Below, piece after piece: positions 6,055 through 46,801 of a stretch of DNA of 64,000 bases (position 1 is its first letter; each line of letters begins with the position of its first letter). The position numbers and the translations under genes are program-made. Source of the stretch: Escherichia coli (lineage in GTDB: Bacteria; Pseudomonadota; Gammaproteobacteria; Enterobacterales; Enterobacteriaceae); the NCBI RefSeq assembly GCF_003018235.1, contig NZ_CP027437.1; one strand, given 5' to 3'. The notes beneath the pieces were generated by a model, which worked only from the letters and a program-made list of their open reading frames with translations, did not search any database and was not told the DNA's origin.

Positions 6055-7302
<1,248 letters not shown>

Positions 7303-7330: not shown

Positions 7331-8702
<1,372 letters not shown>

Positions 8703-26339: not shown

Positions 26340-26370
26340 TATGACCACAATACGACAGATTGTGGTCATA
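26340..26370. repeat. perfect 12-bp-arm inverted repeat tatgaccacaat-N7-attgtggtcata between yfdX and frc (hairpin or operator)
   Basis: read directly; flanked by a T-run upstream and an A-run downstream. Confidence 0.5.
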
Positions 26371-26793
26371 AAATTATTTGGCGCTCGCGGTTCTATAAAC
26401 TCGCATTTTATCTTCCTCAAAGTAAACCGCAATAATCCCGTGTCATCACAAATCATTTATTATGTTATGTTTTATGGTACGCTTTAAAAATCGTAATCAT
26501 ACCCTTACTTGTAAATCACCGGCGCTTCTTACAGTTGTAAGAATAACATCACAAATGTCGCGGCTCTCTCTGATTACCGCGAACCAATATTTATCATATT
26601 CTTCTTTTCGTCCTCACTACTTACCATGCAGAAAGGAATTGGAAGTAGCGATGAAATGATTTTCAGTACTTGATACAGGAATTTAAAAATATCGAGTGCA
26701 GCTACGACGATATTTTGCGGATTATTTATAGAGGCGTTATGTCTTAAATAAACGCTAAATTAACACATATTTAATTAACTAATAGGTATTGCT

Positions 26794-28044: not shown

Positions 28045-28097
28045 TATTAACGGGGGCTTTTGGCTCCCAATTTATAAAAATTTCGAGGTTATTAATC

Positions 28098-29792: not shown

Positions 29793-29861
29793 ATACTGAC
29801 ATCGTCTCCTCTTGCCAACTCATTATGCGATGGTGAGGGGACCCTTATCGGAAATACTATT

Positions 29862-30806
29862 ATGCTAACATTTTTTATTGGCGATTTATTGCCTATTATC
29901 GTAATCATGCTGTTGGGTTATTTTAGCGGCAGACGAGAAACTTTTTCAGAAGATCAAGCCCGGGCATTTAATAAACTGGTATTAAACTACGCTCTTCCTG
30001 CGGCTCTATTTGTATCTATTACCCGGGCAAACAGGGAAATGATTTTTGCGGACACTCGTCTGACCCTTGTATCACTTGTGGTTATTGTCGGATGTTTCTT
30101 TTTCTCCTGGTTCGGTTGCTACAAATTTTTTAAACGTACTCATGCAGAAGCAGCAGTATGTGCATTAATTGCAGGTTCACCTACCATTGGATTCCTGGGA
30201 TTTGCAGTTCTCGATCCTATTTATGGTGATTCCGTATCAACAGGTTTAGTTGTAGCAATTATTTCTATTATTGTTAACGCAATTACTATTCCTATTGGTC
30301 TGTATTTGCTGAATCCTTCCTCAGGAGCGGATGGTAAGAAGAATAGTAACCTGAGCGCATTAATTTCTGCGGCAAAGGAGCCAGTAGTATGGGCACCTGT
30401 TCTGGCAACGATCCTGGTGTTGGTTGGGGTAAAAATTCCGGCAGCATGGGACCCAACCTTTAATCTGATTGCGAAGGCTAACTCAGGGGTAGCGGTATTC
30501 GCTGCGGGGTTGACTCTGGCTGCACATAAATTCGAGTTCAGTGCCGAAATTGCTTATAACACCTTCCTGAAGCTGATTCTGATGCCACTGGCGCTGCTTC
30601 TCGTGGGTATGGCATGTCATTTGAACAGCGAACATCTGCAGATGATGGTACTGGCAGGCGCATTACCGCCGGCATTCTCCGGAATCATTATTGCAAGTCG
30701 GTTTAATGTCTACACCCGCACTGGTACAGCGTCATTGGCTGTGAGCGTACTGGGTTTTGTCGTCACGGCTCCCTTGTGGATTTATGTCAGTCGACTGGTT
30801 TCATAA
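29862..30806 (+). CDS. yfdV: AEC-family membrane transporter, 314 aa
   Basis: ORF track; synteny. Confidence 0.8.
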
Positions 30807-30879
30807 TTAATCATGTTATTGATTTTACATAAATGCCGAAGTGTCTTTTCACCTTCGGCTTTTTTCAAGGCATAAGCAA

Positions 30880-32025
30880 ATGACAAATAATGAATGCAAA
30901 GGGCCGTTTGAAGGCTTATTAGTTATCGATATGACACATGTCCTTAATGGACCTTTCGGAACTCAACTTCTTTGTAATATGGGCGCAAGGGTAATTAAAG
31001 TTGAGCCGCCGGGTCATGGTGATGATACCCGCACATTTGGTCCCTATGTGGATGGACAGTCACTCTATTACAGTTTTATTAATCATGGCAAAGAGAGTGT
31101 GGTTCTTGATTTAAAGAATGATCACGATAAAAGTATATTTATAAATATGCTTAAACAAGCTGATGTATTAGCTGAGAATTTTCGCCCAGGTACAATGGAA
31201 AAACTGGGGTTTTCATGGGAAACGCTACAAGAAATCAACCCGCGTCTCATATATGCTTCATCGTCAGGTTTTGGGCATACCGGCCCGCTAAAAGATGCTC
31301 CAGCCTACGATACCATCATTCAGGCAATGAGCGGGATAATGATGGAAACAGGGTACCCTGATGCTCCGCCAGTGCGCGTGGGTACCTCTCTTGCGGATTT
31401 ATGTGGCGGTGTCTATTTATTCAGCGGAATAGTGAGTGCACTTTATGGCCGCGAAAAGAGCCAGAGAGGGGCGCATGTCGATATAGCGATGTTTGATGCC
31501 ACGCTGAGTTTTCTGGAGCATGGTCTGATGGCATATATTGCGACAGGGAAGTCACCACAACGCCTGGGAAATCGCCATCCCTACATGGCACCTTTTGATG
31601 TTTTTGATACTCAGGATAAGCCGATTACTATTTGTTGTGGTAATGACAAGCTTTTTTCTGCGTTATGCCAGGCACTGGAGCTTACGGAACTGGTTAATGA
31701 TCCCCGATTTAGCAGCAATATTTTACGCGTACAAAACCAGGCTATTCTTAAACAATATATTGAGCGAACGTTAAAAACGCAGGCAGCTGAAGTTTGGTTA
31801 GCCAAAATACATGAAGTTGGTGTGCCCGTCGCGCCGTTATTAAGTGTGGCTGAGGCCATTAATTTGCCACAAACTCAGGCGAGAAATATGTTGATTGAAG
31901 CCGGGGGAATAATGATGCCAGGTAATCCGATAAAAATCAGCGGCTGCGCGGACCCGCATGTTATGCCGGGAGCGGCAACGCTCGACCAACATGGGGAACA
32001 AATTCGCCAGGAGTTCTCATCATAA
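30880..32025 (+). CDS. yfdE: CoA-transferase family III protein, about 381 aa (ORF extends to 30841)
   Basis: ORF track; paralogous to frc; synteny. Confidence 0.8.
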   Translation: MTNNECKGPFEGLLVIDMTHVLNGPFGTQLLCNMGARVIKVEPPGHGDDTRTFGPYVDGQSLYYSFINHGKESVVLDLKNDHDKSIFINMLKQADVLAENFRPGTMEKLGFSWETLQEINPRLIYASSSGFGHTGPLKDAPAYDTIIQAMSGIMMETGYPDAPPVRVGTSLADLCGGVYLFSGIVSALYGREKSQRGAHVDIAMFDATLSFLEHGLMAYIATGKSPQRLGNRHPYMAPFDVFDTQDKPITICCGNDKLFSALCQALELTELVNDPRFSSNILRVQNQAILKQYIERTLKTQAAEVWLAKIHEVGVPVAPLLSVAEAINLPQTQARNMLIEAGGIMMPGNPIKISGCADPHVMPGAATLDQHGEQIRQEFSS

Positions 32026-32080
32026 ATGTAAGATGTGCTGGTAAATAGCTCCCACATTTGAATATTGTGGGAGCCGCTAT

Positions 32081-35000
32081 TTAGTCATTTTGTTGACAGA
32101 AAACAGCTATCTCCTGGTCCAGCTCTGCAATGTGTTCTTTAACAGAGTTCAGCAGCTGAAGAATTTCAGGCTTACTGTCATCTGAAACAGGTGTTATTTC
32201 TAACTGATGGCTAAGATTAATCAACTTTTGCAAATTCAGGATGTTAGCTGCACCGTGGATGCGATGAATACACTGATGGAAAGTTCTGTTGTCGCCAGCT
32301 TCTAGTGCATGAAACGCAGCGGGTAGATCTTTATGCGTTTCATGCTGGAAAGTCATGAGAATCTCCTGCATCAGTTGTAGATCGTTCGCCGTATTATTTT
32401 TCAGGGCCTCGATATCAAGGTGGCGATACTGAGGTGCAATAGGCGCAACCTGGTGTAACTGACTTAAATGTGTTTTCAGTACATCCAGGGTCAACGGTTT
32501 GAACAAACATAAGTTCATGCCGCAATTTAACCCTTTTTCACGTTCGTTAGCCTGTGCGTTGGCTGTAAGCCCCCAGATGGGTAAGGAAGAATTTTGCTCA
32601 CGGAGTTTGCGAGTCAACTCAAAACCATCCATATTCGGCATATTAACGTCAGTAATAAGCAGATCATAATGTTGCATACTGACTTTGTGTAGCGCTTGCA
32701 CACCATCAGTTGCTTCATCAACATCATATCCTAATAGGTTTAGCTGGCGTTTGAGTAATAGCCTGTTGGTCGGATGATCATCCGCGATTAATATGCTCAA
32801 CTTTTCAGGGAGTGTCATGGGTTGTTCTGCTTTTGCCTCGACAGTCGCCACTTGTTGGGTAATTTCTACCGGGATTGTGATCGTAAATGTCGTTCCTATG
32901 CCTGGATGACTTTCTAATGACAAATCGCCCTGCATGTTTTTAATTAATTCTTTGCAGATCATTAAGCCTAAACCAGAACCTGTTTGCTGACGACCTGCAC
33001 TTGTTTGGCTATAGCGTTTAAACAGTTGTTGTTGTTCTTCCTGTGATAATCCACTTCCAGAATCCATAATCGTCATTTTGATTACAGCGTGGTTGTCATC
33101 AATGTTAACCAGGGAGGTCGTAATTTTTACTGCCCCCTCGGTGGTAAATTTGAGAGCATTGCTCAGTAAATTAGATAAGACCTGCTTAAACGCCTGAGGG
33201 TCGATCTTAACCAGGTAATGTTCAGGAAACGTACTGCTGCAACTTAATGCGATCGATTTGCTTGCAGCAATCGCACCGAAAGAGTGACAAGTGTTCTGGA
33301 CTAAAGTAGGGATATCGACCCATTGTGGTTGAAGTTGATAGTTACCCGACTCAATTTTGTCGACATCAAGGATTTCACCAATTAAGCCGAGGAGTGATTG
33401 TCCGGTGGCGTAGGCAAGTGAAATCGCCTCCACCCGTTGTTCCTTGCTAAGACCAGAACCCGACAGAAGTTCCAGGAAGCCCATAATGGAGCTTATTGGT
33501 GTTCTTATTTCGTGACTCATTGTTGCCAGAAACTGACTTTTTGCGACAGTTGCATTGATCGCTTTATTTCTCTCTACTTCGAGAGCGTGAATTAAATCAC
33601 GCGTCTCGGTAATATCTTGCCAACCACAAATATAAACAGCATGATCGCTGGCTGGCAGATTGCATAATGTATGCCAGTGATTAATGCATCTTTTCTCGAT
33701 GCCATTATCAATTTCAAATACCTGTGTGTATATTGTTCGATTTTCTTTCGTTTCTGCTGTGACTTCATGCGCATTAGAAAAAACATCTTTAAAGGGTGAG
33801 TCACTGTTTTCTAATGGTAACATTGCATTTTTGTAGTAATCCGCAGTGAAATAATGTTCAAAAGCACTATTATGACTAATGACATTACCTTGCCAGTTTA
33901 CAACATAAGTTGGATTCGGTAAGGAATCCGAGAGTGCTTTTCGGAATGATATTTGGTTTTCTAAATCACCCTGAATGACTTTACGACGACGAACTGAGCG
34001 TAACAGGTAGAATCCCCATAAAAGGCTACTGCCAACTAATAAAACGGATAATGTCGTGACAATATAAAATTGCTCGCTATAGAGGTCCCATGTGTCAATG
34101 GTCACATTGGGCATTTTAATCCATTTTTCCGTCAGGCGCAGAACTTCGCTTGGGGGAATTGCATTCAGTGCTTTATTAATAATATCCTTAAGTTCCGGTT
34201 CTCCGCGAGGAAAAGCGAACGAAAGCGATGCATTCGGAACGCCGGGAATAAGAAAATGATAAAGTTCATTAGGATAGTAATGGTCGATCATGTAACGTGA
34301 ATTTAACTGTGTCGCGACCAGAGCATCAAGTTCGCCTTCCTTGACCTTGTGAAATGCAGCGCTGGCGTTATCGACTTTTATCCACTCTACCTCCGGATAC
34401 ATCTCTTTTAATTGCGAATGAAGCTCATAATAATAGGGAATGGCAACTTTCATTCCTTTTTTTAATGTTTGTTCACTGTCAGGCGCTTTTTGCATGACAA
34501 AAACGTAAGGCGTTGTTATGAAGGCTTCAGCAAATAAAACATTATTTTCTCTATCTTCACTATAAATAGCGGCGGGCAATATATCCCATCCACCGGGGTT
34601 AAGCTGTGTCCCCGCATGAATATTGTGTGAAACGGTGATCGGAGAAAAATTTAAACCTGTTTGCAAGGTAATAATATTAAGAATATCACCCATCACGCCC
34701 CGAACTGAGCCAGTTTCATCTGTCATAGAATAGGGTGGCGAGTAAGGATTTTCCAGCACCTTTAAATCGGGATGCTGCTTAATCCACTGTTTTTCATGTT
34801 CAGTGAGTTCTAATGGTTTGTTCAGAAAGGCCAGGTTTCCTGTATCAAGCCAATTTTGTGATACTTCATAGCGAACTTCATTTGTTAAAGCATCAACAAA
34901 TCGATTGAGTACTTCATTAAGAACGACTGAATCTTTTCTGGTTAAGAAAAAGTTATATTGACGCGGCGAGTTATAATATTTCACTACATTTAAGGAGTGA

Positions 35001-35674
35001 GTGAAATAGCGGGAAATCATACTGCTGGTAATAATGTTACTACCAATAAAGTAATCATTCTGTCCGGCTGAGACGGATGCTAATGCCTGATATAAATTTG
35101 TAAAAGAGATAATTGTTGCTTTTGGAAATGATTGATGAATTACCTCATCTGGAGGGTAATTTGCTACCCGAGCAATATTTACTGGTTTTGATGAGGTAAG
35201 CGGTCTCATTGAATCGTGAAGGGTGGTGACCAGCGCCGGAAAGGTAATTATCAGCGGTTTGGTTGCAGCAATGTCATCATTAAGAGGCGGCGAAGCAACT
35301 AAATGTGATAACACTATATCGACTTCCCCTTCTGTAAGCGCGTCCATTGCTTTTTGATGATCTGCGTATTCCCGGAGTGTTAATTTGATATTTAACGCTC
35401 TTTTTAAAAGATTTAAATAATCAGCATTAATACCACGAACCCGTTGCTGCGAATCGGTATGCAACAAAGTAGCTGTTTGGGACTTGTGTACTGCAATCAC
35501 AAGATTTTTTTTGCTCGCTAACCAACGTAATTCCTTGTTGCTCAGACGTAGTGGATCAAGCGTGACACGGTTGTTACTACTGATGCCACGATATTCGATG
35601 TAATCTTCGTCTGCGAAACTTATGGTCGACCAAAGACCACAACAGAGAAGAATAATATAGGGTAAAAACTTCAT
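32081..35674 (-). CDS. evgS: hybrid sensor histidine kinase with periplasmic binding domains, HisKA/HATPase, receiver and HPt, 1197 aa
   Basis: ORF track; domain order recognisable; synteny. Confidence 0.9.
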   Translation of the reverse strand: MKFLPYIILLCCGLWSTISFADEDYIEYRGISSNNRVTLDPLRLSNKELRWLASKKNLVIAVHKSQTATLLHTDSQQRVRGINADYLNLLKRALNIKLTLREYADHQKAMDALTEGEVDIVLSHLVASPPLNDDIAATKPLIITFPALVTTLHDSMRPLTSSKPVNIARVANYPPDEVIHQSFPKATIISFTNLYQALASVSAGQNDYFIGSNIITSSMISRYFTHSLNVVKYYNSPRQYNFFLTRKDSVVLNEVLNRFVDALTNEVRYEVSQNWLDTGNLAFLNKPLELTEHEKQWIKQHPDLKVLENPYSPPYSMTDETGSVRGVMGDILNIITLQTGLNFSPITVSHNIHAGTQLNPGGWDILPAAIYSEDRENNVLFAEAFITTPYVFVMQKAPDSEQTLKKGMKVAIPYYYELHSQLKEMYPEVEWIKVDNASAAFHKVKEGELDALVATQLNSRYMIDHYYPNELYHFLIPGVPNASLSFAFPRGEPELKDIINKALNAIPPSEVLRLTEKWIKMPNVTIDTWDLYSEQFYIVTTLSVLLVGSSLLWGFYLLRSVRRRKVIQGDLENQISFRKALSDSLPNPTYVVNWQGNVISHNSAFEHYFTADYYKNAMLPLENSDSPFKDVFSNAHEVTAETKENRTIYTQVFEIDNGIEKRCINHWHTLCNLPASDHAVYICGWQDITETRDLIHALEVERNKAINATVAKSQFLATMSHEIRTPISSIMGFLELLSGSGLSKEQRVEAISLAYATGQSLLGLIGEILDVDKIESGNYQLQPQWVDIPTLVQNTCHSFGAIAASKSIALSCSSTFPEHYLVKIDPQAFKQVLSNLLSNALKFTTEGAVKITTSLVNIDDNHAVIKMTIMDSGSGLSQEEQQQLFKRYSQTSAGRQQTGSGLGLMICKELIKNMQGDLSLESHPGIGTTFTITIPVEITQQVATVEAKAEQPMTLPEKLSILIADDHPTNRLLLKRQLNLLGYDVDEATDGVQALHKVSMQHYDLLITDVNMPNMDGFELTRKLREQNSSLPIWGLTANAQANEREKGLNCGMNLCLFKPLTLDVLKTHLSQLHQVAPIAPQYRHLDIEALKNNTANDLQLMQEILMTFQHETHKDLPAAFHALEAGDNRTFHQCIHRIHGAANILNLQKLINLSHQLEITPVSDDSKPEILQLLNSVKEHIAELDQEIAVFCQQND

Positions 35675-35678
35675 GTGG

Positions 35679-36293
35679 TTAGCCGATTTTGTTACGTTGT
35701 GCGAATGTGTAAAGATCCATCAGTGATTTACATTCTAATTTTTCCATCAGGCGACTTTTATAAGTGCTGACAGTTTTGTTGCTGATGAACATTTTTTCCG
35801 CAATGTCATTATTATCCTTGCCATCAAGAATATATCGCATGACACTAATTTCTTGTTTCGATAAGGAGTCGAGTTTTTGCTGGTCGGACGTTAAACTTCC
35901 AACAAACCGGTTGAGAGAGAAGGGGAAATAGCAGTAGCCATTTTTTGCAGCTTCAATAGCCGCAATGATATTGTTCATGCCTTCTTTTTTACTCACGAAT
36001 CCATTAGCGCCAGCATCAGCACAATGTTTCCCGTAAAAATGGTCATTTTTAGCGGAGACGATAATAATAATTCCGCTATATTGGCGCTTCCTCAGCGTTT
36101 CTAACACCTGGATACCGTTAACTCCGGGGATATCGACATCAATGATGACGATATCAGGCTTAAGTGTTTCCACCCGCTGAACGGCACTTCCCCCTTCAGT
36201 CAACTCCGCTAAGATTTCAATATCGTTTTTGATCAATAAATTACGAATTGCTGCGATAGCAAGAGGATGGTCATCAATAATTATTGCGTTCAT
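35679..36293 (-). CDS. evgA: NarL/FixJ-family response regulator, 204 aa
   Basis: ORF track; receiver plus LuxR-type HTH. Confidence 0.9.
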   Translation of the reverse strand: MNAIIIDDHPLAIAAIRNLLIKNDIEILAELTEGGSAVQRVETLKPDIVIIDVDIPGVNGIQVLETLRKRQYSGIIIIVSAKNDHFYGKHCADAGANGFVSKKEGMNNIIAAIEAAKNGYCYFPFSLNRFVGSLTSDQQKLDSLSKQEISVMRYILDGKDNNDIAEKMFISNKTVSTYKSRLMEKLECKSLMDLYTFAQRNKIG

Positions 36294-36517
36294 AGATTAT
36301 TCCCTTTGCAATGAAGCATCTCCCTTCTCCCTGTAGTAATACAGACATAAGGCATCATCTCATTTTCTCAATAAAAATAAGAAAATTTGAGCTTCCTTTA
36401 AGATAATTCGACAAGTATACCATATAAATAGTCGGCATAAATGAAATGTCAACAATAAAATCAGGGATTGTACCGATGATTTATAGTTTCACATTAGCAC
36501 TATAAGTCTTCTCACTA

Positions 36518-36535
36518 ATCCTACATGCGTAAGAA
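36518..36535. promoter_or_regulatory. EvgA-box candidate, aTCCTACA-TG-CGTAAGAA, in the evgA–emrK divergent region
   Basis: 18-bp imperfect inverted repeat resembling the yfdX box; lies between evgA and emrK. Confidence 0.5.
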
Positions 36536-36708
36536 TTGTATTGCAAAAGCCACGGTTTAGTCCTCTGTTGTTTTTTTTGCACCTCATTTAAATTAGGCCT
36601 CCAACGTTCCTGGGACAATGTGCAACACATGCACTGTGTTTGATATGAAGAATGAATACTCTTTTCATTCAATTCATAAATTTCATCTATGCGAAATGAG
36701 AGATAATA

Positions 36709-37872
36709 GTGGAACAGATTAATTCAAATAAAAAACATTCTAACAGAAGAAAATACTTTTCTTTATTGGCGGTAGTTTTATTTATTGCGTTTTCAGGTGC
36801 CTATGCCTATTGGTCAATGGAATTAGAAGACATGATTAGTACAGATGACGCCTATGTCACGGGGAATGCAGATCCAATTTCTGCACAAGTTTCAGGCAGC
36901 GTCACTGTCGTTAATCATAAAGATACGAACTACGTTCGACAGGGTGACATTTTAGTCTCACTGGATAAGACTGATGCCACTATCGCACTCAATAAAGCTA
37001 AAAATAATCTGGCCAATATTGTTCGGCAAACGAATAAACTGTACTTACAGGATAAACAATACAGTGCCGAAGTCGCTTCAGCACGTATTCAGTATCAACA
37101 ATCTTTAGAAGATTATAACCGTCGTGTACCTTTAGCGAAGCAGGGGGTTATTTCAAAAGAAACGCTGGAGCATACCAAAGATACGTTAATAAGTAGCAAA
37201 GCGGCATTGAATGCTGCTATTCAGGCTTATAAAGCGAATAAAGCTTTAGTAATGAACACACCATTAAACCGTCAGCCACAAGTCGTTGAAGCTGCGGATG
37301 CAACCAAAGAAGCCTGGTTGGCGCTTAAACGTACGGATATTAAGAGTCCGGTTACCGGCTATATTGCCCAGCGAAGTGTTCAGGTCGGCGAAACAGTGAG
37401 TCCCGGACAATCGTTAATGGCTGTCGTACCGGCACGTCAAATGTGGGTTAATGCTAACTTTAAAGAAACACAACTCACGGATGTACGGATTGGTCAATCG
37501 GTCAATATTATCAGCGATCTTTATGGTGAAAATGTTGTGTTTCATGGTCGGGTGACAGGGATCAATATGGGAACCGGCAATGCGTTCTCCTTATTACCTG
37601 CACAAAATGCGACAGGGAATTGGATCAAAATCGTTCAGCGTGTACCGGTTGAGGTTTCTCTTGATCCAAAAGAACTCATGGAACATCCCTTGCGTATTGG
37701 TTTATCGATGACTGCAACTATTGATACCAGGAACGAAGACATTGCCGATATGCCCGATCTGGCTTCAACCGTGACGTCCATGCCTGCTTATACCAGTAAG
37801 GCTTTAGTTATCGATACCAGTCCGATAGAAAAAGAAATTAGCAACATTATTTCGCATAATGGACAACTTTAA
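36709..37872 (+). CDS. emrK: multidrug efflux membrane fusion protein (EmrA paralog), 387 aa
   Basis: ORF track; HlyD-family; synteny. Confidence 0.85.
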   Translation: MEQINSNKKHSNRRKYFSLLAVVLFIAFSGAYAYWSMELEDMISTDDAYVTGNADPISAQVSGSVTVVNHKDTNYVRQGDILVSLDKTDATIALNKAKNNLANIVRQTNKLYLQDKQYSAEVASARIQYQQSLEDYNRRVPLAKQGVISKETLEHTKDTLISSKAALNAAIQAYKANKALVMNTPLNRQPQVVEAADATKEAWLALKRTDIKSPVTGYIAQRSVQVGETVSPGQSLMAVVPARQMWVNANFKETQLTDVRIGQSVNIISDLYGENVVFHGRVTGINMGTGNAFSLLPAQNATGNWIKIVQRVPVEVSLDPKELMEHPLRIGLSMTATIDTRNEDIADMPDLASTVTSMPAYTSKALVIDTSPIEKEISNIISHNGQL

Positions 37873-39410
37873 TGGCAATCACTAAATCAACTCCGGCACC
37901 ATTAACCGGTGGGACGTTATGGTGCGTTACTATTGCATTGTCATTAGCGACGTTTATGCAAATGTTGGATTCCACTATTTCTAACGTCGCAATACCGACA
38001 ATATCTGGCTTTCTGGGAGCATCAACAGACGAAGGCACCTGGGTTATCACTTCGTTTGGCGTAGCAAATGCCATTGCGATCCCTGTTACCGGCAGGCTGG
38101 CACAAAGAATAGGCGAATTAAGATTATTTTTACTTTCAGTCACTTTTTTTTCGCTGTCTTCCTTAATGTGTAGTTTATCGACCAATCTTGATGTGCTGAT
38201 ATTTTTTAGAGTCGTTCAGGGATTAATGGCGGGGCCGTTAATTCCACTGTCACAGAGTTTATTATTAAGGAATTATCCACCAGAAAAAAGAACATTTGCT
38301 CTGGCATTATGGTCTATGACCGTGATTATCGCGCCGATATGTGGGCCGATATTGGGCGGTTATATTTGTGATAACTTTAGCTGGGGTTGGATATTTTTAA
38401 TCAATGTCCCTATGGGGATTATCGTCCTGACATTATGCTTAACCTTACTTAAAGGAAGAGAAACTGAGACTTCACCGGTCAAAATGAATCTACCAGGACT
38501 GACCCTGTTAGTGCTCGGTGTTGGTGGCTTGCAAATTATGCTCGATAAAGGGCGCGATCTGGATTGGTTCAACTCGAGTACAATAATAATACTAACAGTA
38601 GTGTCAGTTATTTCTCTGATCTCTTTAGTCATTTGGGAGTCGACCTCAGAGAATCCGATTCTTGACCTCAGTTTGTTTAAGTCCCGTAATTTCACCATTG
38701 GTATTGTGAGTATCACATGCGCGTATTTATTTTACTCTGGGGCAATAGTCCTTATGCCGCAATTACTCCAGGAAACGATGGGGTATAATGCGATATGGGC
38801 CGGACTTGCCTATGCGCCCATCGGCATCATGCCGCTATTAATATCACCTTTGATAGGACGTTATGGCAACAAAATTGATATGCGGTTGTTGGTGACATTT
38901 AGTTTTTTAATGTATGCGGTTTGCTATTACTGGCGTTCTGTGACATTTATGCCAACGATTGATTTTACAGGCATCATTTTGCCACAGTTTTTCCAGGGAT
39001 TCGCCGTCGCCTGTTTCTTTTTACCCTTAACAACGATTTCGTTTTCAGGTTTGCCAGATAATAAATTTGCCAATGCCTCGAGTATGAGTAATTTTTTTCG
39101 TACCTTGTCAGGATCAGTTGGTACGTCGTTGACAATGACGCTGTGGGGACGACGCGAATCGTTACACCATAGTCAGTTGACAGCAACCATCGATCAATTT
39201 AACCCCGTGTTTAATTCATCGTCACAAATTATGGATAAATACTATGGTTCGCTTTCAGGGGTTCTTAATGAAATTAATAATGAAATAACTCAGCAGTCAC
39301 TTTCAATTTCTGCAAATGAGATTTTCCGTATGGCGGCTATTGCTTTTATCTTACTTACGGTTTTGGTTTGGTTTGCGAAACCGCCGTTTACAGCGAAAGG
39401 CGTTGGGTGA
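37872..39410 (+). CDS. emrY: MFS multidrug efflux pump (EmrB paralog), 512 aa
   Basis: ORF track; 14-TMS MFS; start overlaps the emrK stop. Confidence 0.85.
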   Translation: MAITKSTPAPLTGGTLWCVTIALSLATFMQMLDSTISNVAIPTISGFLGASTDEGTWVITSFGVANAIAIPVTGRLAQRIGELRLFLLSVTFFSLSSLMCSLSTNLDVLIFFRVVQGLMAGPLIPLSQSLLLRNYPPEKRTFALALWSMTVIIAPICGPILGGYICDNFSWGWIFLINVPMGIIVLTLCLTLLKGRETETSPVKMNLPGLTLLVLGVGGLQIMLDKGRDLDWFNSSTIIILTVVSVISLISLVIWESTSENPILDLSLFKSRNFTIGIVSITCAYLFYSGAIVLMPQLLQETMGYNAIWAGLAYAPIGIMPLLISPLIGRYGNKIDMRLLVTFSFLMYAVCYYWRSVTFMPTIDFTGIILPQFFQGFAVACFFLPLTTISFSGLPDNKFANASSMSNFFRTLSGSVGTSLTMTLWGRRESLHHSQLTATIDQFNPVFNSSSQIMDKYYGSLSGVLNEINNEITQQSLSISANEIFRMAAIAFILLTVLVWFAKPPFTAKGVG

Positions 39411-39515
39411 TGGTAAAAAGAGAGAGCTATAGCAGGTAAGACGGTAGAATCTTAAGTCTGCGCCATCGGCAGCATCGCTCACCCAGGGAAAGGATGGCGA
39501 TGCTGCGTTGAAACG

Positions 39516-40847
39516 TTATGAACGGCCTTTTGCCAGATATTGCTCCATCTCTTCTTCCGGCACCATTCCACCTCCCGTCGCCCACACCAGATGAGTGGCA
39601 TTACGCAGTTGTTCTGCGCTGAAACCGTGCATCTGTTGGTAACTTACTGATGCGCACACGCGCTGAGGCCCGGCCATACCCGCCAGTGCCGAAGGTTCAA
39701 GACGAATACCTTCTTCCTGCGCCAGCCAGCCAAGCATGTCATACATGGTTTGATCGCTAAGGGTATAGAAGCCATCCAGTAGACGCTCCATTGCCCGCCC
39801 GACAAAGCCTGATGCGCGACCAACTGCAAGGCCATCCGCTGCGGTAAGGTTGTCGATACCAATATCCTGAACAGAAATCTGATCGTGTAATCCTGTATGG
39901 ACGCCTAACAGCATACAAGGGGAGTGCGTTGGTTCGGCAAAAAAGCAGTGAACATGATCGCCAAATGCCAGTTTAAGCCCGAATGCGACGCCACCAGGAC
40001 CACCGCCAACACCACACGGCAGATAGACAAACAGAGGGTTATCAGCATCGACAATACGACCTTGCTCGGCAAATTGCGCTTTAAGACGCTGGCCTGCGAC
40101 GGAATACCCAAGGAACAACGTGCGGGAATTCTCGTCATCAATAAAGAAACAGTTCGGGTCAGACTGCGCTACTTTACGTCCTTCCTCGACTGCAACACCA
40201 TAATCTTGCTCATATTCCACGACCGTAACGCCATGGCTGCGCAGTTTCGCTTTTTTCCATGCCCGGGCATCAGCAGACATATGTACTGTCACCTTAAAGC
40301 CAATGCGGGCGCTCATAATGCCGATTGATAACCCCAGATTTCCGGTTGAGCCCACAGCAATGCTGTATTGACTAAAGAACTGTTTAAACTCCGGAGAAAG
40401 CAGTTTGCTGTAGTCATCTTCAAGCGTCAGCAACCCCGCTTCCAGAGCCAGTTTTTCTGCATGTGCCAGGACTTCATAAATCCCGCCGCGTGCTTTTATG
40501 GAGCCGGAAATGGGCAAATGGCTATCTTTTTTCAGTAGCAGTTGCCTGCTGATCGGTTGTTGATATTCCTTTTCCAGCCGTTTTTGCATAGCCGGAATGG
40601 CAACCAGTTCTGATTCAATAATCCCCCCAGTAGCAGCAGTTTCAGGAAATGCTTTTGCCAGATAGGGTGCAAAACGGGATAAGCGCGCATGGGCGTCCTG
40701 AACATCCTGTTCGGTCAGGCCAACATAAGGTAAACCTTCAGCCAATGAGGTCGTGCCAGGATTAAACCAGGTGGTTTCTTTAAGAGCAACCAGATCCTTT
40801 ACCAACGGATACTGGGCGATGAGCGAGTTCATTTTAGCGTTTTCCAT
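39516..40847 (-). CDS. dsdA: D-serine ammonia-lyase (PLP-dependent), about 442 aa
   Basis: ORF track; [19 protein letters not shown] recalled as DsdA. Confidence 0.9.
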
Positions 40848-40864
40848 AGTACGTCTCTTTGCGC

Positions 40865-41095
40865 TTAGATGATAAATGACAGCAGGAATGTGCCCGCCAG
40901 AGCGACGACTGAAGCGATAAATGTCGCGGTCGTATAGTATTTAAATGTTTCATTGAGCGTAGCGCCGCAATATTGCTTCACCAGCCAGAAAAGCGAGTCC
41001 GTAACGATCGTGCAGCCAATCGCACCTGAACCGATAGCAATCGCAATAATTTCCGGGCTGATGTCGGGATACAGCGGCAGCACAATGATCCATAT
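40865..41095 (-). pseudogene. dsdX: 3' remnant of the D-serine permease gene (about 72 C-terminal codons); the rest was replaced by the csc island
   Basis: minus-strand frame ...IVLPLYPDISPEIIAIAIGSGAIGCTIV...SFII matches the DsdX C-terminus; in-frame stop just upstream; no dsdC present. Confidence 0.7.
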
Positions 41096-41325
41096 TTATA
41101 TTTTCTTCTCCAGGTTGGCGATGCCAGTTGGCATGTTTTACCTACTTGCCTACATGGTTACTCGTTGGCGAGAACAGAGGCGGAATTGGGTACAATTGTC
41201 CGGGAATTATTGTTATTTTTTATTGTATTGCCGTGTCGGGTGATAGGGCGTCGAGAATATCGTTGGATCTCGCCAGTGACGTCTGTTTCTGCTACAGTGC
41301 CCGTTTTACGGCAAACGGCTTGGGT

Positions 41326-42321
41326 ATGGCTTCATTAAAGGATGTCGCACGCCTGGCGGGAGTGTCGATGATGACAGTCTCCCGGGTGATGCATAATGCA
41401 GAATCTGTGCGTCCTGCAACGCGTGACCGCGTATTGCAGGCAATCCAGACCCTGAATTATGTTCCTGATCTTTCCGCCCGTAAGATGCGCGCTCAAGGAC
41501 GTAAGCCGTCGACTCTCGCCGTGCTGGCGCAGGACACTGCTACCACTCCTTTCTCTGTTGATATTCTGCTTGCCATTGAGCAAACCGCCAGCGAGTTCGG
41601 CTGGAATAGTTTTTTAATCAATATTTTTTCTGAAGATGACGCTGCCCGTGCTGCTCGTCAGCTGCTTGCCCACCGTCCGGATGGCATTATCTATACTACA
41701 ATGGGGCTGCGACATATCACGCTGCCTGAGTCTCTGTATGGTGAAAATATTGTATTGGCGAACTGTGTGGCGGATGACCCAGCGTTACCCAGTTATATCC
41801 CTGATGATTACACTGCACAATATGAATCAACACAGCATTTGCTCGCGGCGGGCTATCGTCAACCGTTATGCTTCTGGCTACCGGAAAGTGCGTTGGCAAC
41901 AGGGTATCGTCGGCAGGGATTTGAGCAGGCCTGGCGTGATGCTGGACGAGATCTGGCTGAGGTGAAACAATTTCACATGGCAACAGGTGATGATCACTAC
42001 ACCGATCTCGCAAGTTTACTCAATGCCCACTTCAAATCTGGCAAACCAGATTTTGATGTTCTGATATGTGGTAACGATCGCGCAGCCTTTGTCGCTTATC
42101 AGGTTCTCCTGGCGAAGGGGGTACGTATCCCGCAGGATGTCGCCGTAATGGGCTTTGATAATCTGGTTGGCGTCGGGCATCTGTTTTTACCGCCGCTGAC
42201 CACAATTCAGCTTCCACATGACATTATCGGGCGGGAAGCTGCATTGCATATTATTGAAGATCGTGAAGGGGGAAGAGTGACGCGGATCCCTTGCCCGCTG
42301 TTGATCCGTTGTTCCACCTGA
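41326..42321 (+). CDS. cscR: LacI-family sucrose operon repressor, 331 aa (ORF extends to 41128)
   Basis: ORF track; N-terminal LacI-type HTH MASLKDVARLAGVSMMTVSRV; csc context. Confidence 0.85.
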   Translation: MASLKDVARLAGVSMMTVSRVMHNAESVRPATRDRVLQAIQTLNYVPDLSARKMRAQGRKPSTLAVLAQDTATTPFSVDILLAIEQTASEFGWNSFLINIFSEDDAARAARQLLAHRPDGIIYTTMGLRHITLPESLYGENIVLANCVADDPALPSYIPDDYTAQYESTQHLLAAGYRQPLCFWLPESALATGYRRQGFEQAWRDAGRDLAEVKQFHMATGDDHYTDLASLLNAHFKSGKPDFDVLICGNDRAAFVAYQVLLAKGVRIPQDVAVMGFDNLVGVGHLFLPPLTTIQLPHDIIGREAALHIIEDREGGRVTRIPCPLLIRCST

Positions 42322-42328
42322 TATTATG

Positions 42329-43762
42329 TTAACCCAGTTGCCAGAGTGCTCCATGTTGCAGCACAGCCACTCCGTGGGAGGCATAGAGCGACAGTTCCCG
42401 TTCTTCTGGCTGCGGATATATTCGGCTACTCATCACCGCCTCCCCGTCGTTAATAAATACTTCCACGGATGATGTATCGATAAATATCCTTAGGGCGAGC
42501 ATGTCACCCTGCGGGAGGGGAATACTACGGTAGCCATCTAAATTCTCGTGTGGGTAATACCGCCACAAAACAAGTCGCTCAGATTGGTTATCAATATACA
42601 GCCGCATTCCAGTGCCGAGCTGTAATCCGTAATGTTCGGCATCACTGTTCTTCAGCGCCCACTGCAACTGAATCTCAACTGCTTGCGCGTTTTCCTGCAA
42701 AACATATTTATTGCTGATTGTGCGGGGAGAGATAGATTGATGCTGCTGGCGTAACGACTCAGCTTCGTGTACCGGGCGTTGTAGAAGTTTGCCATTGCTC
42801 TCTGATAGCTCGCGCGCCAGCGTCATGCAGCCTGCCCAGCCTTCACGTTTTGAGGGCATTGGCGATTCCCACATATCCATCCAGCCGATAACAATACGCC
42901 GACCATCCTTCGCTAAAAAGCTTTGTGGTGCATAAAAGTCATGCCCGTTATCAAGTTCAGTAAAATGCCCGGATTGTGCAAAAAGTCGTCCTGGCGACCA
43001 CATTCCGGGTATTACGCCACTTTGAAAGCGATTTCGGTAACTGTATCCCTCGGCATTCATTCCCTGCGGGGAAAACATCAGATAATGCTGATCGCCAAGG
43101 CTGAAAAAGTCCGGACATTCCCACATATAGCTTTCACCCGCATCAGCGTGGGCCAGTACGCGATCGAAGGTCCATTCACGCAATGAACTGCCGCGATAAA
43201 GCAGGATCTGCCCCGTGTTGCCTGGATCTTTCGCCCCGACAACCATCCACCATGTGTCGGCTTCACGCCACACTTTAGGATCGCGGAAGTGCATGATTCC
43301 TTCTGGTGGAGTGAGGATCACACCCTGTTTCTCGAAATGAATACCATCCCGACTGGTAGCCAGACATTGTACTTCGCGAATTGCATCGTCATTACCTGCA
43401 CCATCGAGCCAGACGTGTCCGGTGTAGATAAGTGAGAGGACACCATTGTCATCGACAGCACTACCTGAAAAACACCCGTCTTTGTCATTCTCGTCTCCTG
43501 GCGCTAGCGCAATAGGCTCATGCTGCCAGTGGATCATATCGTCGCTGGTGGCATGTCCCCAGTGCATTGGCCCCCAGTGTTCGCTCATCGGGTGATGTTG
43601 ATAAAACGCGTGATAACGATCGTTAAACCAGATCAGGCCGTTTGGATCGTTCATCCACCCGGCAGGAGGCGCGAGGTGAAAATGGGGATAGAAAGTGTTA
43701 CCTCGGCGCTCGTGAAGTTTTGCTAGTGCGTTTTGCGCCGCATGTAATCGAGATTGCGTCAT
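42329..43762 (-). CDS. cscA: sucrose-6-phosphate hydrolase / invertase (GH32), 477 aa
   Basis: ORF track; GH32 WMNDPNG motif; recalled CscA. Confidence 0.85.
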   Translation of the reverse strand: MTQSRLHAAQNALAKLHERRGNTFYPHFHLAPPAGWMNDPNGLIWFNDRYHAFYQHHPMSEHWGPMHWGHATSDDMIHWQHEPIALAPGDENDKDGCFSGSAVDDNGVLSLIYTGHVWLDGAGNDDAIREVQCLATSRDGIHFEKQGVILTPPEGIMHFRDPKVWREADTWWMVVGAKDPGNTGQILLYRGSSLREWTFDRVLAHADAGESYMWECPDFFSLGDQHYLMFSPQGMNAEGYSYRNRFQSGVIPGMWSPGRLFAQSGHFTELDNGHDFYAPQSFLAKDGRRIVIGWMDMWESPMPSKREGWAGCMTLARELSESNGKLLQRPVHEAESLRQQHQSISPRTISNKYVLQENAQAVEIQLQWALKNSDAEHYGLQLGTGMRLYIDNQSERLVLWRYYPHENLDGYRSIPLPQGDMLALRIFIDTSSVEVFINDGEAVMSSRIYPQPEERELSLYASHGVAVLQHGALWQLG

Positions 43763-43796
43763 TTTTATCATCCTGGTTAAGCAAATTTGGTGAATT

Positions 43797-43808
43797 GTTA
43801 ACGTTAAC
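43797..43808. promoter_or_regulatory. perfect palindrome GTTAACGTTAAC, candidate CscR operator 1 in the cscA–cscK divergent region
   Basis: 12-bp perfect palindrome read directly. Confidence 0.5.
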
Positions 43809-43860
43809 TTTTATAAAAATAAAGTCCCTTACTTTCATAAATGCGATGAATATCACAAAT

Positions 43861-43872
43861 GTTAACGTTAAC
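43861..43872. promoter_or_regulatory. second perfect palindrome GTTAACGTTAAC, candidate CscR operator 2, nested in a larger TCACAAA...TTTGTGA inverted repeat
   Basis: identical 12-mer 64 bp from the first copy. Confidence 0.5.
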
Positions 43873-43977
43873 TATGACGTTTTGTGATCGAATATGCATG
43901 TTTTAGTAAATCCATGACGATTTTGCGAAAAAGAGGTTTATCACTATGCGTAAGTCAGATGAATTTAAGGGAAAAAA

Positions 43978-44901
43978 ATGTCAGCCAAAGTATGGGTTTT
44001 AGGGGATGCGGTCGTAGATCTCTTGCCAGAATCAGACGGGCGGCTACTGCCTTGTCCTGGCGGTGCGCCAGCTAACGTTGCGGTGGGAATCGCCAGATTA
44101 GGCGGAATAAGTGGGTTTATAGGTCGGGTGGGGGATGATCCTTTTGGTGCGTTAATGCAAAGAACGCTGCTAACTGAGGGAGTCGATATCACGTATCTGA
44201 AGCAAGATGAATGGCACCGGACATCCACGGTGCTTGTCGATCTGAACGATCAAGGGGAACGTTCATTTACGTTTATGGTCCGCCCCAGTGCCGATCTTTT
44301 TTTAGAGACGACAGACTTGCCCTGCTGGCGACATGGCGAATGGTTACATCTCTGTTCAATTGCGTTGTCTGCCGAGCCTTCGCGTTCCAGCGCATTTACT
44401 GCGATGACGGCGATCCGGCATGCCGGAGGTTTTGTCAGCTTCGATCCCAATATTCGTGAAGATCTATGGCAAGACGAGCATTTGCTCCGCTTGTGTTTGC
44501 GGCAGGCGCTACAACTGGCGGATGTCGTCAAGCTCTCGGAAGAAGAATGGCGACTTATCAGTGGAAAAACACAGAACGATCGGGATATATGCGCCCTGGC
44601 AAAAGAGTATGAGATCGCCATGCTGTTGGTGACTAAAGGTGCAGAAGGGGTGGTGGTCTGTTATCGAGGACAAGTCCACCATTTTGCTGGAATGTCTGTG
44701 AATTGTGTCGATAGCACTGGGGCGGGAGATGCGTTCGTTGCCGGGTTACTCACAGGTCTGTCCTCTACGGGATTATCTACAGATGAGAGAGAAATGCGAC
44801 GAATTATCGATCTCGCTCAACGTTGCGGAGCGCTTGCAGTAACAGCGAAAGGGGCAATGACAGCGCTGCCATGTCGACAAGAACTGGAAAGTGAGAAGTA
44901 A
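43978..44901 (+). CDS. cscK: fructokinase (PfkB family), 307 aa
   Basis: ORF track; ribokinase/PfkB-like; csc context. Confidence 0.85.
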   Translation: MSAKVWVLGDAVVDLLPESDGRLLPCPGGAPANVAVGIARLGGISGFIGRVGDDPFGALMQRTLLTEGVDITYLKQDEWHRTSTVLVDLNDQGERSFTFMVRPSADLFLETTDLPCWRHGEWLHLCSIALSAEPSRSSAFTAMTAIRHAGGFVSFDPNIREDLWQDEHLLRLCLRQALQLADVVKLSEEEWRLISGKTQNDRDICALAKEYEIAMLLVTKGAEGVVVCYRGQVHHFAGMSVNCVDSTGAGDAFVAGLLTGLSSTGLSTDEREMRRIIDLAQRCGALAVTAKGAMTALPCRQELESEK

Positions 44902-44962
44902 ACGGCGAGGCCGCTCTTATCTCTAAATAGGACATGAATTTTTTAACGACAGGCAGGTAATT

Positions 44963-46210
44963 ATGGCACTGAATATTCCATTCAGAAATGCATACTATCG
45001 TTTTGCATCCAGTTACTCATTTCTCTTTTTTATTTCCTGGTCGCTGTGGTGGTCGTTATACGCTATTTGGCTGAAAGGACATCTAGGATTAACAGGGACG
45101 GAATTAGGTACACTTTATTCGGTCAACCAGTTTACCAGCATTCTATTTATGATGTTCTACGGCATCGTTCAGGATAAACTCGGTCTGAAGAAACCGCTCA
45201 TCTGGTGTATGAGTTTCATTCTGGTCTTGACCGGACCGTTTATGATTTACGTTTATGAACCGTTACTGCAAAGCAATTTTTCTGTAGGTCTAATTCTGGG
45301 GGCGCTCTTTTTTGGCCTGGGGTATCTGGCGGGATGTGGTTTGCTTGACAGCTTCACTGAAAAAATGGCGCGAAATTTTCATTTCGAATATGGAACAGCG
45401 CGCGCCTGGGGATCTTTTGGCTATGCTATTGGCGCGTTCTTTGCCGGCATATTTTTTAGTATCAGTCCCCATATCAACTTCTGGTTGGTCTCGCTATTTG
45501 GCGCTGTATTTATGATGATCAACATGCGTTTTAAAGATAAGGGTCACCAGTGTGTAGCGGTGGATGCAGGAGGGGTAAAAAAAGAGGATTTTATCGCAGT
45601 TTTCAAGGATCGAAACTTCTGGGTTTTCGTCATATTTATTGTGGGGACGTGGTCTTTCTATAACATTTTTGATCAACAACTCTTTCCTGTCTTTTATGCA
45701 GGTTTATTCGAATCACACGATGTAGGAACGCGCCTGTATGGTTATCTCAACTCATTCCAGGTGGTACTCGAAGCGCTGTGCATGGCGATTATTCCTTTCT
45801 TTGTGAATCGGGTAGGGCCAAAAAATGCATTACTTATCGGTGTTGTGATTATGGCGTTGCGTATCCTTTCCTGCGCGCTGTTCGTTAACCCCTGGATTAT
45901 TTCATTAGTGAAGCTGTTACATGCCATTGAGGTTCCACTTTGTGTCATATCCGTCTTCAAATACAGCGTGGCAAACTTTGATAAACGCCTGTCGTCGACG
46001 ATCTTTCTGATTGGTTTTCAAATTGCCAGTTCGCTTGGGATTGTGCTGCTTTCAACGCCGACTGGGATACTCTTTGACCACGCAGGCTACCAGACAGTTT
46101 TCTTCGCAATTTCGGGTATTGTCTGCCTGATGTTGCTATTTGGCATTTTCTTCCTGAGTAAAAAACGCGAGCAAATAGTTATGGAAACGCCTGTACCTTC
46201 AGCAATATAG
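44963..46210 (+). CDS. cscB: sucrose:H+ symporter (LacY-like MFS), 415 aa
   Basis: ORF track; oligosaccharide:H+ symporter family; csc context. Confidence 0.85.
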   Translation: MALNIPFRNAYYRFASSYSFLFFISWSLWWSLYAIWLKGHLGLTGTELGTLYSVNQFTSILFMMFYGIVQDKLGLKKPLIWCMSFILVLTGPFMIYVYEPLLQSNFSVGLILGALFFGLGYLAGCGLLDSFTEKMARNFHFEYGTARAWGSFGYAIGAFFAGIFFSISPHINFWLVSLFGAVFMMINMRFKDKGHQCVAVDAGGVKKEDFIAVFKDRNFWVFVIFIVGTWSFYNIFDQQLFPVFYAGLFESHDVGTRLYGYLNSFQVVLEALCMAIIPFFVNRVGPKNALLIGVVIMALRILSCALFVNPWIISLVKLLHAIEVPLCVISVFKYSVANFDKRLSSTIFLIGFQIASSLGIVLLSTPTGILFDHAGYQTVFFAISGIVCLMLLFGIFFLSKKREQIVMETPVPSAI

Positions 46211-46289
46211 ACGTAAACTTTTTCCGGTTGTTGTCGATATCTCCATATCCCTCAACCGGAAAATAATAATACAAAAATGCTTAGCCCAA

Positions 46290-46520
46290 CTAATAATCAC
46301 CTAATCCAAACGCCTCATTCATGTTCTGGTACAGTCGCTCAAATGTACTCCGGATACGCGGTTCGCTGATTTCCAGGACATTGTCGTCATTCAGCGACCT
46401 GTCCCGAGTATCACGGGCCTGCGAATTCATCAAGGAATGCATTGCAGAGTGAAGTATCGAGTCACGCCATATTTCGCTATCAGGATTCTGTATGATGGTT
46501 ACATCGCCCGGCCCAGGGCT
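46290..46520 (-). other. start-less ORF remnant of about 60 codons (…IWRDSILHSAMHSLMNSQARDTRDRSLNDDNVLEISEPRIRSTFERLYQNMNEAFGLGDY*) in the cscB–argW spacer
   Basis: manual translation; open frame bounded upstream by a stop, with no plausible start or RBS; identity unknown. Confidence 0.3.
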
Positions 46521-46651
46521 GTTTAGTCATCAGCGCTTTCTGACAGTGCTGAGATTTCAACCTGTTGCAGTAAAAATGAGTAAATATAGGGCAAGTGTGC
46601 TGCCAAACCCATCTTTTACGGGGTGAAGGTAGATATTGTTAGAAGGGTATC

Positions 46652-46726
46652 TGGTGTCCCCTGCAGGAATCGAACCTGCAATTAGCCCTTAGGAGGGGCT
46701 CGTTATATCCATTTAACTAAGAGGAC
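46652..46726 (-). tRNA. argW: tRNA-Arg(CCU), 75 nt
   Basis: reverse complement GTCCTCTTAGTTAAATGGATATAACGAGCCCCTCCTAAGGGCTAATTGCAGGTTCGATTCCTGCAGGGGACACCA. Confidence 0.9.
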
Positions 46727-46801
46727 AATGCGGCATGAGTATACCCGCTAATGGACTGCGGGGTAAGTACGCTGCCGCTCGATTGCTTAAACCCTCGCCA
46801 T

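Follow-up and report, generated by a model that had tools for sequence, protein, structure and literature searches.

The 64,000-nucleotide stretch of Escherichia coli DNA analyzed here (from now on the window) carries the well-documented four-gene csc island, which is intact and ordinary in this strain and already known. The locus as a whole is very probably a chromosomal regulon for non-PTS sucrose catabolism (csc), with the phenotype predicted for it below and a putative origin at the tRNA gene argW. The inserted DNA proper spans positions 41083-46651 (5,569 bp), lies on the chromosome between a remnant of dsdX and argW and contains cscR, cscA, cscK and cscB, all of them intact. The features of the locus are:

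39516-40847, minus strand: dsdA, D-serine ammonia-lyase, intact, 443 aa (TIGR02035, 808 bits)
40865-41082, minus strand: dsdX 3' remnant comprising the final 72 of 445 codons (matches DsdX profile positions 374-445 of 445)
41083-41325, plus strand: non-coding left flank 5' of cscR, presumed cscR promoter region
41326-42321, plus strand: cscR, LacI-family sucrose repressor, 331 aa, intact (PF00356, LacI HTH; PF00532, Peripla_BP_1)
42329-43762, minus strand: cscA, GH32 invertase (sucrose hydrolase), 477 aa, intact (PF00251, PF08244; TIGR01322, 478 bits)
43763-43977, no strand: divergent cscA/cscKB control region, GC 0.30
43797-43808 and 43861-43872: two perfect 12-bp palindromes GTTAACGTTAAC, putative CscR operators
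43842-43857: CRP-like site TGCGATGAATATCACA with one mismatch, between both operators
43978-44901, plus strand: cscK, PfkB-family fructokinase, 307 aa, intact (NF006957, 507 bits; PF00294)
44963-46210, plus strand: cscB, LacY-type sucrose:H+ symporter, 415 aa, intact (PF01306, LacY_symp, 641 bits)
46220-46263, no strand: terminator-like hairpin TTTTCCGGTTG...CAACCGGAAAA 3' of cscB, end of the core csc module
46299-46526, minus strand: internal fragment of a DUF4942 gene, 76 codons (residues 76-151 of a 281-aa protein; PF13708)
46527-46651, no strand: 125-bp spacer directly adjoining argW at its 3' end, specific to csc-bearing Escherichia
46652-46726, minus strand: argW, tRNA-Arg(CCT), whose 3' end (46652) is the right island boundary and the argW prophage attachment site

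All four open reading frames match Csc proteins. Identity to the annotated counterparts amounts to 328/331 residues for CscR, 476/477 for CscA, 304/307 for CscK and 412/415 for CscB, and all four are at least 99% identical at the amino-acid level to the proteins of genome L001, strain fS10a and O157:H7. The cscR start is the ATG at 41326 and not the upstream TTG of a 397-aa open reading frame, and cscA starts at 43762. CscA contains the motifs WMNDPNG (residues 36-42), RDP (160) and ECP (215), CscK contains GGAPAN and DSTGAGD, and CscB carries the wild-type residue Q353. With regard to orientation, cscA is divergent from cscKB, and cscR is convergent with cscA. GC content is 0.515-0.518 in cscR, cscA and cscK, 0.433 in cscB, 0.298 in the cscA-cscK intergenic region and 0.481 in the whole window. 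The palindrome GTTAACGTTAAC found twice in this intergenic region has 2 matches in the 64-kb window, where 0.14 would be expected; csc operators and a CRP site were described by Jahreis 2002, as summarized in PMC11251922. A sigma-70 consensus scan of 40800-46800 under strict criteria returned no site and was uninformative.

The island boundaries were determined by BLAST against L002 (strain EC14), a genome with the order dsdA-dsdX-dsdC-argW. Homology stops at 41082|41083 and resumes exactly at 46652, the 3' end of the argW tRNA, which places the right boundary to the base. Relative to that genome, the island stands in place of 2,368 bp that hold dsdC, the spacer between it and argW, and 84% of dsdX. 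The dsdX remnant is 97% identical to DsdX residues 374-445 (tblastn), and its alignment with intact dsdX parts after ...CAGCGGCAGCA. No DsdC-coding sequence was found in the whole 64-kb window; dsdA is intact (439-440 residues identical to the 442-aa DsdA of L001 and L004) but lacks its activator DsdC. An earlier note on this DNA had placed a cscR/cscA/cscK/cscB module between a dsdX remnant and the 3' side of argW, and gene positions, protein families and the high identity all agree with it. Its further claim that dsdC and most of dsdX had been replaced can now be sharpened: the exchange is exact and affects dsdC as well as the 5' 84% of dsdX. The extent it had given, 40865-46651, is correct at the right end, while its start takes in the dsdX remnant and has to be moved to 41083. 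It had also seen no direct repeat of the argW 3' end at the dsdX junction, and none emerged here: a search of the window with up to 3 mismatches found neither the argW 3' 24-mer nor the 15-mer near this junction, the sole other match (<=3 mismatches) being a chance-level 15-mer at 60833. A search for direct and inverted repeats over 40700-46900 yielded nothing relevant at the dsdX junction. There is no integrase gene beside the tRNA, and every open reading frame of at least 60 aa within 41083-46651 is either a csc gene or a shadow frame of one. In an Rfam search of the window, only three tRNAs reached the gathering score. The left flank (41083-41325) occurs once per genome and solely in csc-bearing E. 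coli (2,691/5,426); E. coli genomes contain no paralogue of it at any other site, which rules it out as the end of a repeated element. Its part 41083-41284 is also present in the Escherichia lineage L007 and, from 41216 on, in L006, and this part is missing from the Citrobacter csc locus, where homology starts at 41285.

The spacer between cscB and argW is 441 bp long and holds the terminator-like hairpin and the DUF4942 gene fragment. The hairpin is kept in Citrobacter csc loci, whose homology ends at about 46278. The DUF4942 fragment is 50% identical to a DUF4942 protein of CFT073 (tblastn, E 2e-18), whose gene has cbtA/yeeU, radC and antirestriction genes as neighbors; part of the fragment is annotated in EDL933 as the 50-aa open reading frame z3622. 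DUF4942 genes are typical of CP4-like integrative islands, and the fragment represents a fossil of one. As in CP4-type tRNA-integrated islands, for example the cbtA/yeeU-DUF4942 island of CFT073, the boundary lies at the tRNA 3' end and DUF4942 has the orientation expected downstream of a tRNA; unlike these islands, the window keeps 76 DUF4942 codons only and has no integrase, toxin-antitoxin or att repeat. E. coli genomes lacking csc match the 441-bp spacer solely in its DUF4942 part, and the sequence at 46527-46651 is wholly unlike the dsdC-argW spacer of L002. This argW-side spacer was absent from all E. coli genomes without csc, and thus E. coli yielded no intact parent element. The earlier note had overlooked the DUF4942 fragment.

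When 5,426 complete E. coli genomes were surveyed, about 2,640-2,690, approximately half, carried the island, and an identical 80-mer across the dsdX|csc junction was present in 2,664 of the 5,426. The prophage-free argW version seen in the window is common to about 1,466 genomes. The csc regulons of EC3132, W and O157:H7 EDL933 (z3622-z3626) have the same four genes in the same order and orientation, the same dsdX|csc junction, the two 12-bp operators, the CRP site and the small open reading frame of the DUF4942 fragment (z3622). For these three strains, the replacement of dsdC and 5' dsdX by csc has been published (PMC3032704, PMC4366372, PMC7486766, PMC11251922). Differences concern CscK, which has 307 aa in the window and 304 aa in O157:H7, and an extra element that W and O157:H7, but not the window, carry at argW, inserted so that it separates the csc spacer from the tRNA. 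In E. coli W, this element is a lambdoid prophage (PMC3032704, Table 2). The comparison with an alternative, W-type argW configuration made in the earlier note agrees with the published arrangement, with the nuance that W also has its argW prophage. O157:H7 and L007 have, after the spacer and before an integrated element, a copy of 15-23 nt of the argW 3' end. The dsdCXA-argW order of EC14 and the argW-CPS-53-dsdCXA order of K-12 share the same backbone, emrKY-dsdA on one side and argW-yfdC-mlaA on the other, and compared with both the window has the 5.6-kb csc island in place of dsdC and 373 of 445 dsdX codons. The K-12 order given in the earlier note is present in MG1655, where argW is followed by CPS-53, pawZ (a 15-nt argW repeat), dsdC, dsdX and dsdA; unlike K-12, the window has neither CPS-53 nor the pawZ repeat.

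Outside Escherichia, csc loci of Citrobacter amalonaticus (L008, L012) have the same cscR, cscA, cscK, cscB order and orientation and are 80-83% identical at the DNA level over window positions 41285-46278, the hairpin after cscB included. They are located between ytfQRT-yjfF and an MCP fragment followed by fbp, mpl and pmbA, lack both a DUF4942 fragment and a dsd context, and have neither a tRNA within 10 kb nor, among the neighboring open reading frames examined, an integrase, indicating that the csc module can also move by other routes. Plasmid and phage carriage were considered and rejected. Full-length csc matches filed under plasmids are records of 0.37-4.9 Mb, all but one >1.4 Mb and evidently chromosomes, and true plasmids match only through a distant GH32 gene (~74%). 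Four phage records hold csc, but at their very ends, which looks like overreach of prophage boundaries at argW.

With regard to origin, we infer that csc arrived within or next to a CP4-like integrative element that inserted at the argW 3' end. The integrase and the bulk of the genes of this element would later have disappeared, with the DUF4942 fragment left behind, and a deletion would then have taken the distal end of the element together with dsdC and 5' dsdX, resulting in a junction without an att repeat. The csc allele so formed, of single origin, would now segregate in about half of E. coli. Integration is favored by the right boundary, which lies exactly at the tRNA 3' end that also serves as prophage att site, and the DUF4942 fragment is in line with the published proposal that csc was brought in by an element integrating at argW. 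Integration has to be deduced because the window contains no integrase and no att repeat, and an internal deletion must be assumed because the DUF4942 fragment adjoins the tRNA, while DUF4942 lies far from the tRNA in intact CP4-like islands.

Alternatively, csc and foreign island DNA may have been swapped for dsdC and 5' dsdX in one step by illegitimate or flank-guided recombination. In that case no integrase would have acted at argW, and the island would end at the tRNA because of a recombination hotspot. Such an exchange would agree with the lack of both integrase and att repeat, with a left junction inside a gene and with the Citrobacter module, whose site has no nearby tRNA and no integrase among the flanking open reading frames examined. 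Two observations speak against it: the right boundary coincides to the base with the argW 3' end, where CPS-53 and other argW elements are known to have their att site, and a gene fragment of an integrative island lies 125 bp from that end. We consider this scenario rather unlikely. As to timing, the same dsdX|csc junction is found in L007 at about 90% DNA identity (flanks 90.1%, csc 90.3%), and this common junction points to one old event. More tentatively, since junction, DUF4942 fossil and csc are all common to L007 at ~90% over flanks and csc, the choice between csc and dsdCX could be an old, single-origin, trans-species presence/absence polymorphism, either older than the Escherichia species boundaries or crossing them, which is kept at about 50% in E. 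coli, rather than a recent acquisition. We view this as an unlikely reading; if true, it would represent an old polymorphism trading sucrose use against D-serine use.

The functions of the encoded components follow from what has been established for the csc family. CscB would import sucrose with a proton, the GH32 invertase CscA would hydrolyze it to glucose and fructose, and CscK would phosphorylate fructose. The LacI-family protein CscR would repress the divergent cscA and cscKB promoters via the two GTTAACGTTAAC operators, with catabolite control added through the CRP site. Both csc function and the D-serine trade-off have been published (PMC3032704, PMC4366372, PMC7486766, PMC6599523). With every csc component intact and wild type, the strain is predicted to grow on sucrose, although probably slowly when the sugar is scarce. 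Slow growth at low sucrose is typical of wild-type csc with intact cscR and CscB Q353 (PMC11251922, PMC6599523), and deletion of cscR is reported to accelerate growth on sucrose and to increase dsdA read-through (PMC7486766). Because dsdC and most of dsdX are missing from this locus, D-serine sensitivity and an inability to utilize D-serine are predicted as well, even though dsdA is intact; K1 strains are an example of genomes with a second dsdCXA copy.

That the csc genes are instead cryptic or non-functional and the strain Suc- is very unlikely: wild-type csc strains do grow slowly on low sucrose and Shigella csc loci are commonly inactivated (PMC11251922), but here all four reading frames are full length and free of frameshifts and IS elements, the proteins have their catalytic and signature motifs, both operators are perfect, and the proteins differ by 1% at most from those of csc-bearing E. 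coli. A PTS-type scr regulon (pUR400, Klebsiella, E. coli B2), which likewise has a GH32 hydrolase, a fructokinase, a LacI-type repressor and paired operators (PMC11251922) and is brought to mind by the top NCBIfam match of CscA, TIGR01322 (scrB_fam), a 'sucrose-6-phosphate hydrolase' model, and by its frequent RefSeq name, sucrose-6-phosphate hydrolase, is hardly credible and already refuted by gene content, since scr encodes a PTS EII (ScrA) and a porin (ScrY) and hydrolyzes sucrose-6-phosphate, whereas the window has a LacY-type symporter (PF01306), neither scrA nor scrY, and gene order and operators of the csc type.

Arrangement, regulation and D-serine trade-off of this locus are all published (PMC3032704, PMC4366372, PMC7486766, PMC11251922), and the same topics are treated by Jahreis 2002 and Moritz & Welch 2006 as far as these are relayed in PMC11251922, PMC4366372, PMC3032704 and PMC7486766. 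The csc locus described here leaves current understanding unchanged. The csc genes are those used in engineering sucrose-fed production strains. The value of the finding lies solely in the annotation of this strain, for which a sucrose-positive, D-serine-sensitive and D-serine-non-utilizing phenotype is predicted, a pattern that according to the literature is mainly found in intestinal, B1/D/E-type E. coli as opposed to K-12-like or most uropathogenic lineages.

Four intact sucrose-utilization genes lie between a truncated dsdX and argW, within a region containing the following features:

37872-39410, plus strand, emrY
39516-40847, minus strand, dsdA
40865-41083, minus strand, dsdX remnant, a 72-codon ORF that matches DsdX profile positions 374-445 of 445, the last 72
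41326-42321, plus strand, LacI-family regulator (cscR)
42329-43762, minus strand, GH32 hydrolase (cscA)
43978-44901, plus strand, PfkB fructokinase (cscK; NF006957, 507 bits)
44963-46210, plus strand, LacY-type symporter (cscB; PF01306, 641 bits)
46652-46726, minus strand, tRNA-Arg(CCT) (argW)
46802-47734, minus strand, yfdC
48028-48783, plus strand, mlaA
48965-50245, minus strand, yfdF-like ORF
50612-51958, minus strand, fadL

The earlier note had read the four ORFs as Csc proteins, an identification borne out by RefSeq records matching 8.4 kb at 99% identity, which name the genes cscR, cscA, cscK and cscB and whose annotated products differ from those of the window by 1-3 residues each. Relative to O157:H7, 3-7 positions differ, three of which stem from the CscK C-terminus differing in length by 3 aa. 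None of the four genes carries a frameshift or interruption. CscA contains the GH32 motifs WMNDPNG (36-42), RDP (160) and ECP (215), CscK the PfkB signatures GGAPAN and DSTGAGD, and CscB the wild-type Q at residue 353, as opposed to the Q353H fast-uptake variant. The GC content of cscB (0.433; 44963-46210) is clearly lower than that of cscR, cscA and cscK (0.515-0.518; 41326-44901), which hints that the module is itself mosaic.

Boundaries were defined against L002, an island-free E. coli genome (strain EC14) with the gene order emrY-dsdA-dsdX-dsdC-argW-yfdC. Homology stops at 41082, within dsdX, and restarts exactly at 46652, where the 3' end of argW begins on the shown strand; the inserted DNA therefore spans 41083-46651 (5,569 bp). 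The 2,368 bp of L002 sequence that it displaces run from the 5' 1,120 bp of dsdX, through the dsdX-dsdC intergenic region and dsdC, to the 95-bp spacer between dsdC and argW. By tblastn, DsdC has no match in the 64-kb window and DsdX only the 72-codon remnant, in line with the earlier claim that dsdC and most of dsdX had been replaced. The K-12 layout invoked there, argW followed by CPS-53 and dsdC-dsdX-dsdA, is present in MG1655, where the order is argW, CPS-53 (10.2 kb), pawZ (a 15-nt argW 3' repeat), dsdC, dsdX and dsdA. Neither an integrase nor an att repeat was found at the island, which agrees with the reported lack of an argW 3' direct repeat at the dsdX junction; both the original observation and its interpretation are correct.

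At least 80% of window 39400-47800 was found in 2,642 of 5,426 complete E. coli genomes. The 243-bp left flank occurs in 2,691 of them, as one copy each and always on the chromosome, and an 80-mer across the dsdX/csc junction in 2,664. Since this breakpoint is common to essentially all csc-bearing E. coli, a single founding event is indicated. The 80-mer across the spacer/argW junction is present in only 1,466 of the 5,426 genomes; in the others, such as O157:H7, the csc spacer leads into the initial 15-23 nt of the argW 3' end, beyond which lies an integrated element, demonstrating that the sequence from 46652 on is an active att site. The window represents the form without a prophage at argW; for E. 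coli W, a lambdoid prophage at this tRNA is listed (PMC3032704 Table 2). Four phage records (ON470594, ON470589, ON470608 and ON470622) contain csc at their extreme ends, most likely due to argW prophage boundaries drawn too wide rather than to phage cargo.

Within the 441-bp cscB-argW spacer lies an internal piece of a DUF4942 gene (46299-46526, minus strand), equivalent to residues 76-151 in a protein of 281 aa (50% identity, E 2e-18; PF13708 also matches). In CFT073, the full-length gene resides in a CP4-type island near cbtA/yeeU, radC and antirestriction genes. The fragment is directed away from argW, as would be expected of an island integrated downstream of the tRNA. Jahreis et al. (2002) reportedly proposed that csc was delivered by an argW-integrating mobile element. 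PMC4366372 is consistent with this proposal, which is supported by two features of the window, the DUF4942 fragment and the boundary that coincides to the base with the tRNA 3' end. As both an integrase and an att repeat are absent, the left junction probably arose through a later deletion into dsdX, giving a two-step history in which an element would first have integrated at argW, bringing csc, and subsequently lost its distal end together with dsdC and part of dsdX. That the same state was instead reached by illegitimate replacement in one step seems less likely.

A single CscB scan of species-representative genomes returned four kinds of match. L007, a csc locus labelled E. coli, shows only about 90% DNA identity (90.1% across emrK-dsdA, 90.3% across csc), and has the same csc-side junction as the window (...GCAGCA/CAnTGATCC...). 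Its dsdX remnant (L007 5980-6120) carries an extra 104-bp deletion bordered by the short microhomologies GCCGCA and GCGGCA, which suggests slippage-type pseudogene decay; its DUF4942 fragment is shorter than that of the window, and beyond a 15-nt argW 3' copy lies foreign DNA. In L006 (Escherichia sp. MOD1-EC7003, 95% identity), csc adjoins lpxP. There, about 290 bp separate cscR and lpxP (L006 1-1436), so the roughly 17 kb between them in the window (24473-41216), which carry yfdX, evgAS, emrKY, dsdA and presumably, going by the K-12 map, frc, oxc, yfdV and yfdE, are absent. Citrobacter amalonaticus (L008 and L012) shares the csc gene order at 80-83% DNA identity, only across 41285-46278, at a different site between ytfQRT-yjfF and an MCP fragment/fbp/mpl/pmbA; no tRNA was found within 10 kb and no integrase among the flanking ORFs examined. 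The transferable core thus extends over about 41285-46278, the segments 41083-41284 and 46279-46651 having been found in Escherichia loci only. Rosenbergiella species encode CscB homologues of about 62% amino-acid identity.

Within the 215-bp cscA-cscK intergenic region (GC 0.30), the palindrome GTTAACGTTAAC occurs twice in perfect form (43797-43808 and 43861-43872), at a spacing of 64 bp; at up to one mismatch these are the only two matches in the whole window (0.14 expected by chance). Between them is a CRP-like site, TGCGATGAATATCACA (43842-43857), that departs from the consensus at one position. PMC11251922 credits Jahreis et al. (2002) with identifying the equivalent pair of 12-bp inverted repeats and CRP site, and shows these to be conserved across species. 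A terminator-like hairpin, TTTTCCGGTTG...CAACCGGAAAA (46220-46263), 3' of cscB is also kept in Citrobacter.

Elsewhere in the window, the 426-aa ORF at 48965-50245 (minus strand, GC 0.33) has no match in Pfam or NCBIfam and is a divergent YfdF allele, with 74-87% amino-acid identity to the 352-aa K-12 YfdF and an internal stretch of roughly 70 residues duplicated in tandem. Its divergence far exceeds that of its neighbours, the yfdC protein for example being 100% identical to that of other E. coli. A 326-aa ORF at 7493-8473 (minus strand) is an IS110-family transposase of the RNA-guided, bridge-RNA type (NF033542, E 6e-76). From K-12 gene order and ORF lengths, we take its neighbours to be mntH (6064-7302) and yfeO (9165-10421), between which, to our knowledge, K-12 has no such insertion.

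The island is an already-known feature. Its arrangement is said to have been documented genetically by Alaeddinoglu & Charles in 1979, molecularly by Bockmann in 1992 and Jahreis in 2002, and epidemiologically by Moritz & Welch in 2006. It also appears in the W genome paper (PMC3032704), in D-serine/virulence studies (PMC4366372, PMC7486766) and in a 2024 survey (PMC11251922). Added here are only boundaries resolved to the base, counts of the junctions across 5,426 genomes, the DUF4942 fossil and the finding that a 90%-identical Escherichia lineage shares the junction.

Sucrose enters by CscB proton symport and is hydrolysed by CscA, and the fructose is phosphorylated by CscK; both csc promoters are repressed by CscR and need cAMP-CRP (PMC3032704, PMC6599523, PMC11251922). 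All parts of this system are present and intact in the window, and the strain is predicted from its sequence to be sucrose-positive. Its sucrose use would probably be slow at low concentrations, given the wild-type state of cscR, both operators and CscB Q353. With dsdC and dsdX lost, dsdA is predicted to be silent. EHEC with this dsdC/dsdX-less arrangement are D-serine-sensitive, and dsdA can be re-activated via deletions removing cscR, through read-through from the cscA or z3622 promoter (PMC4366372, PMC7486766).
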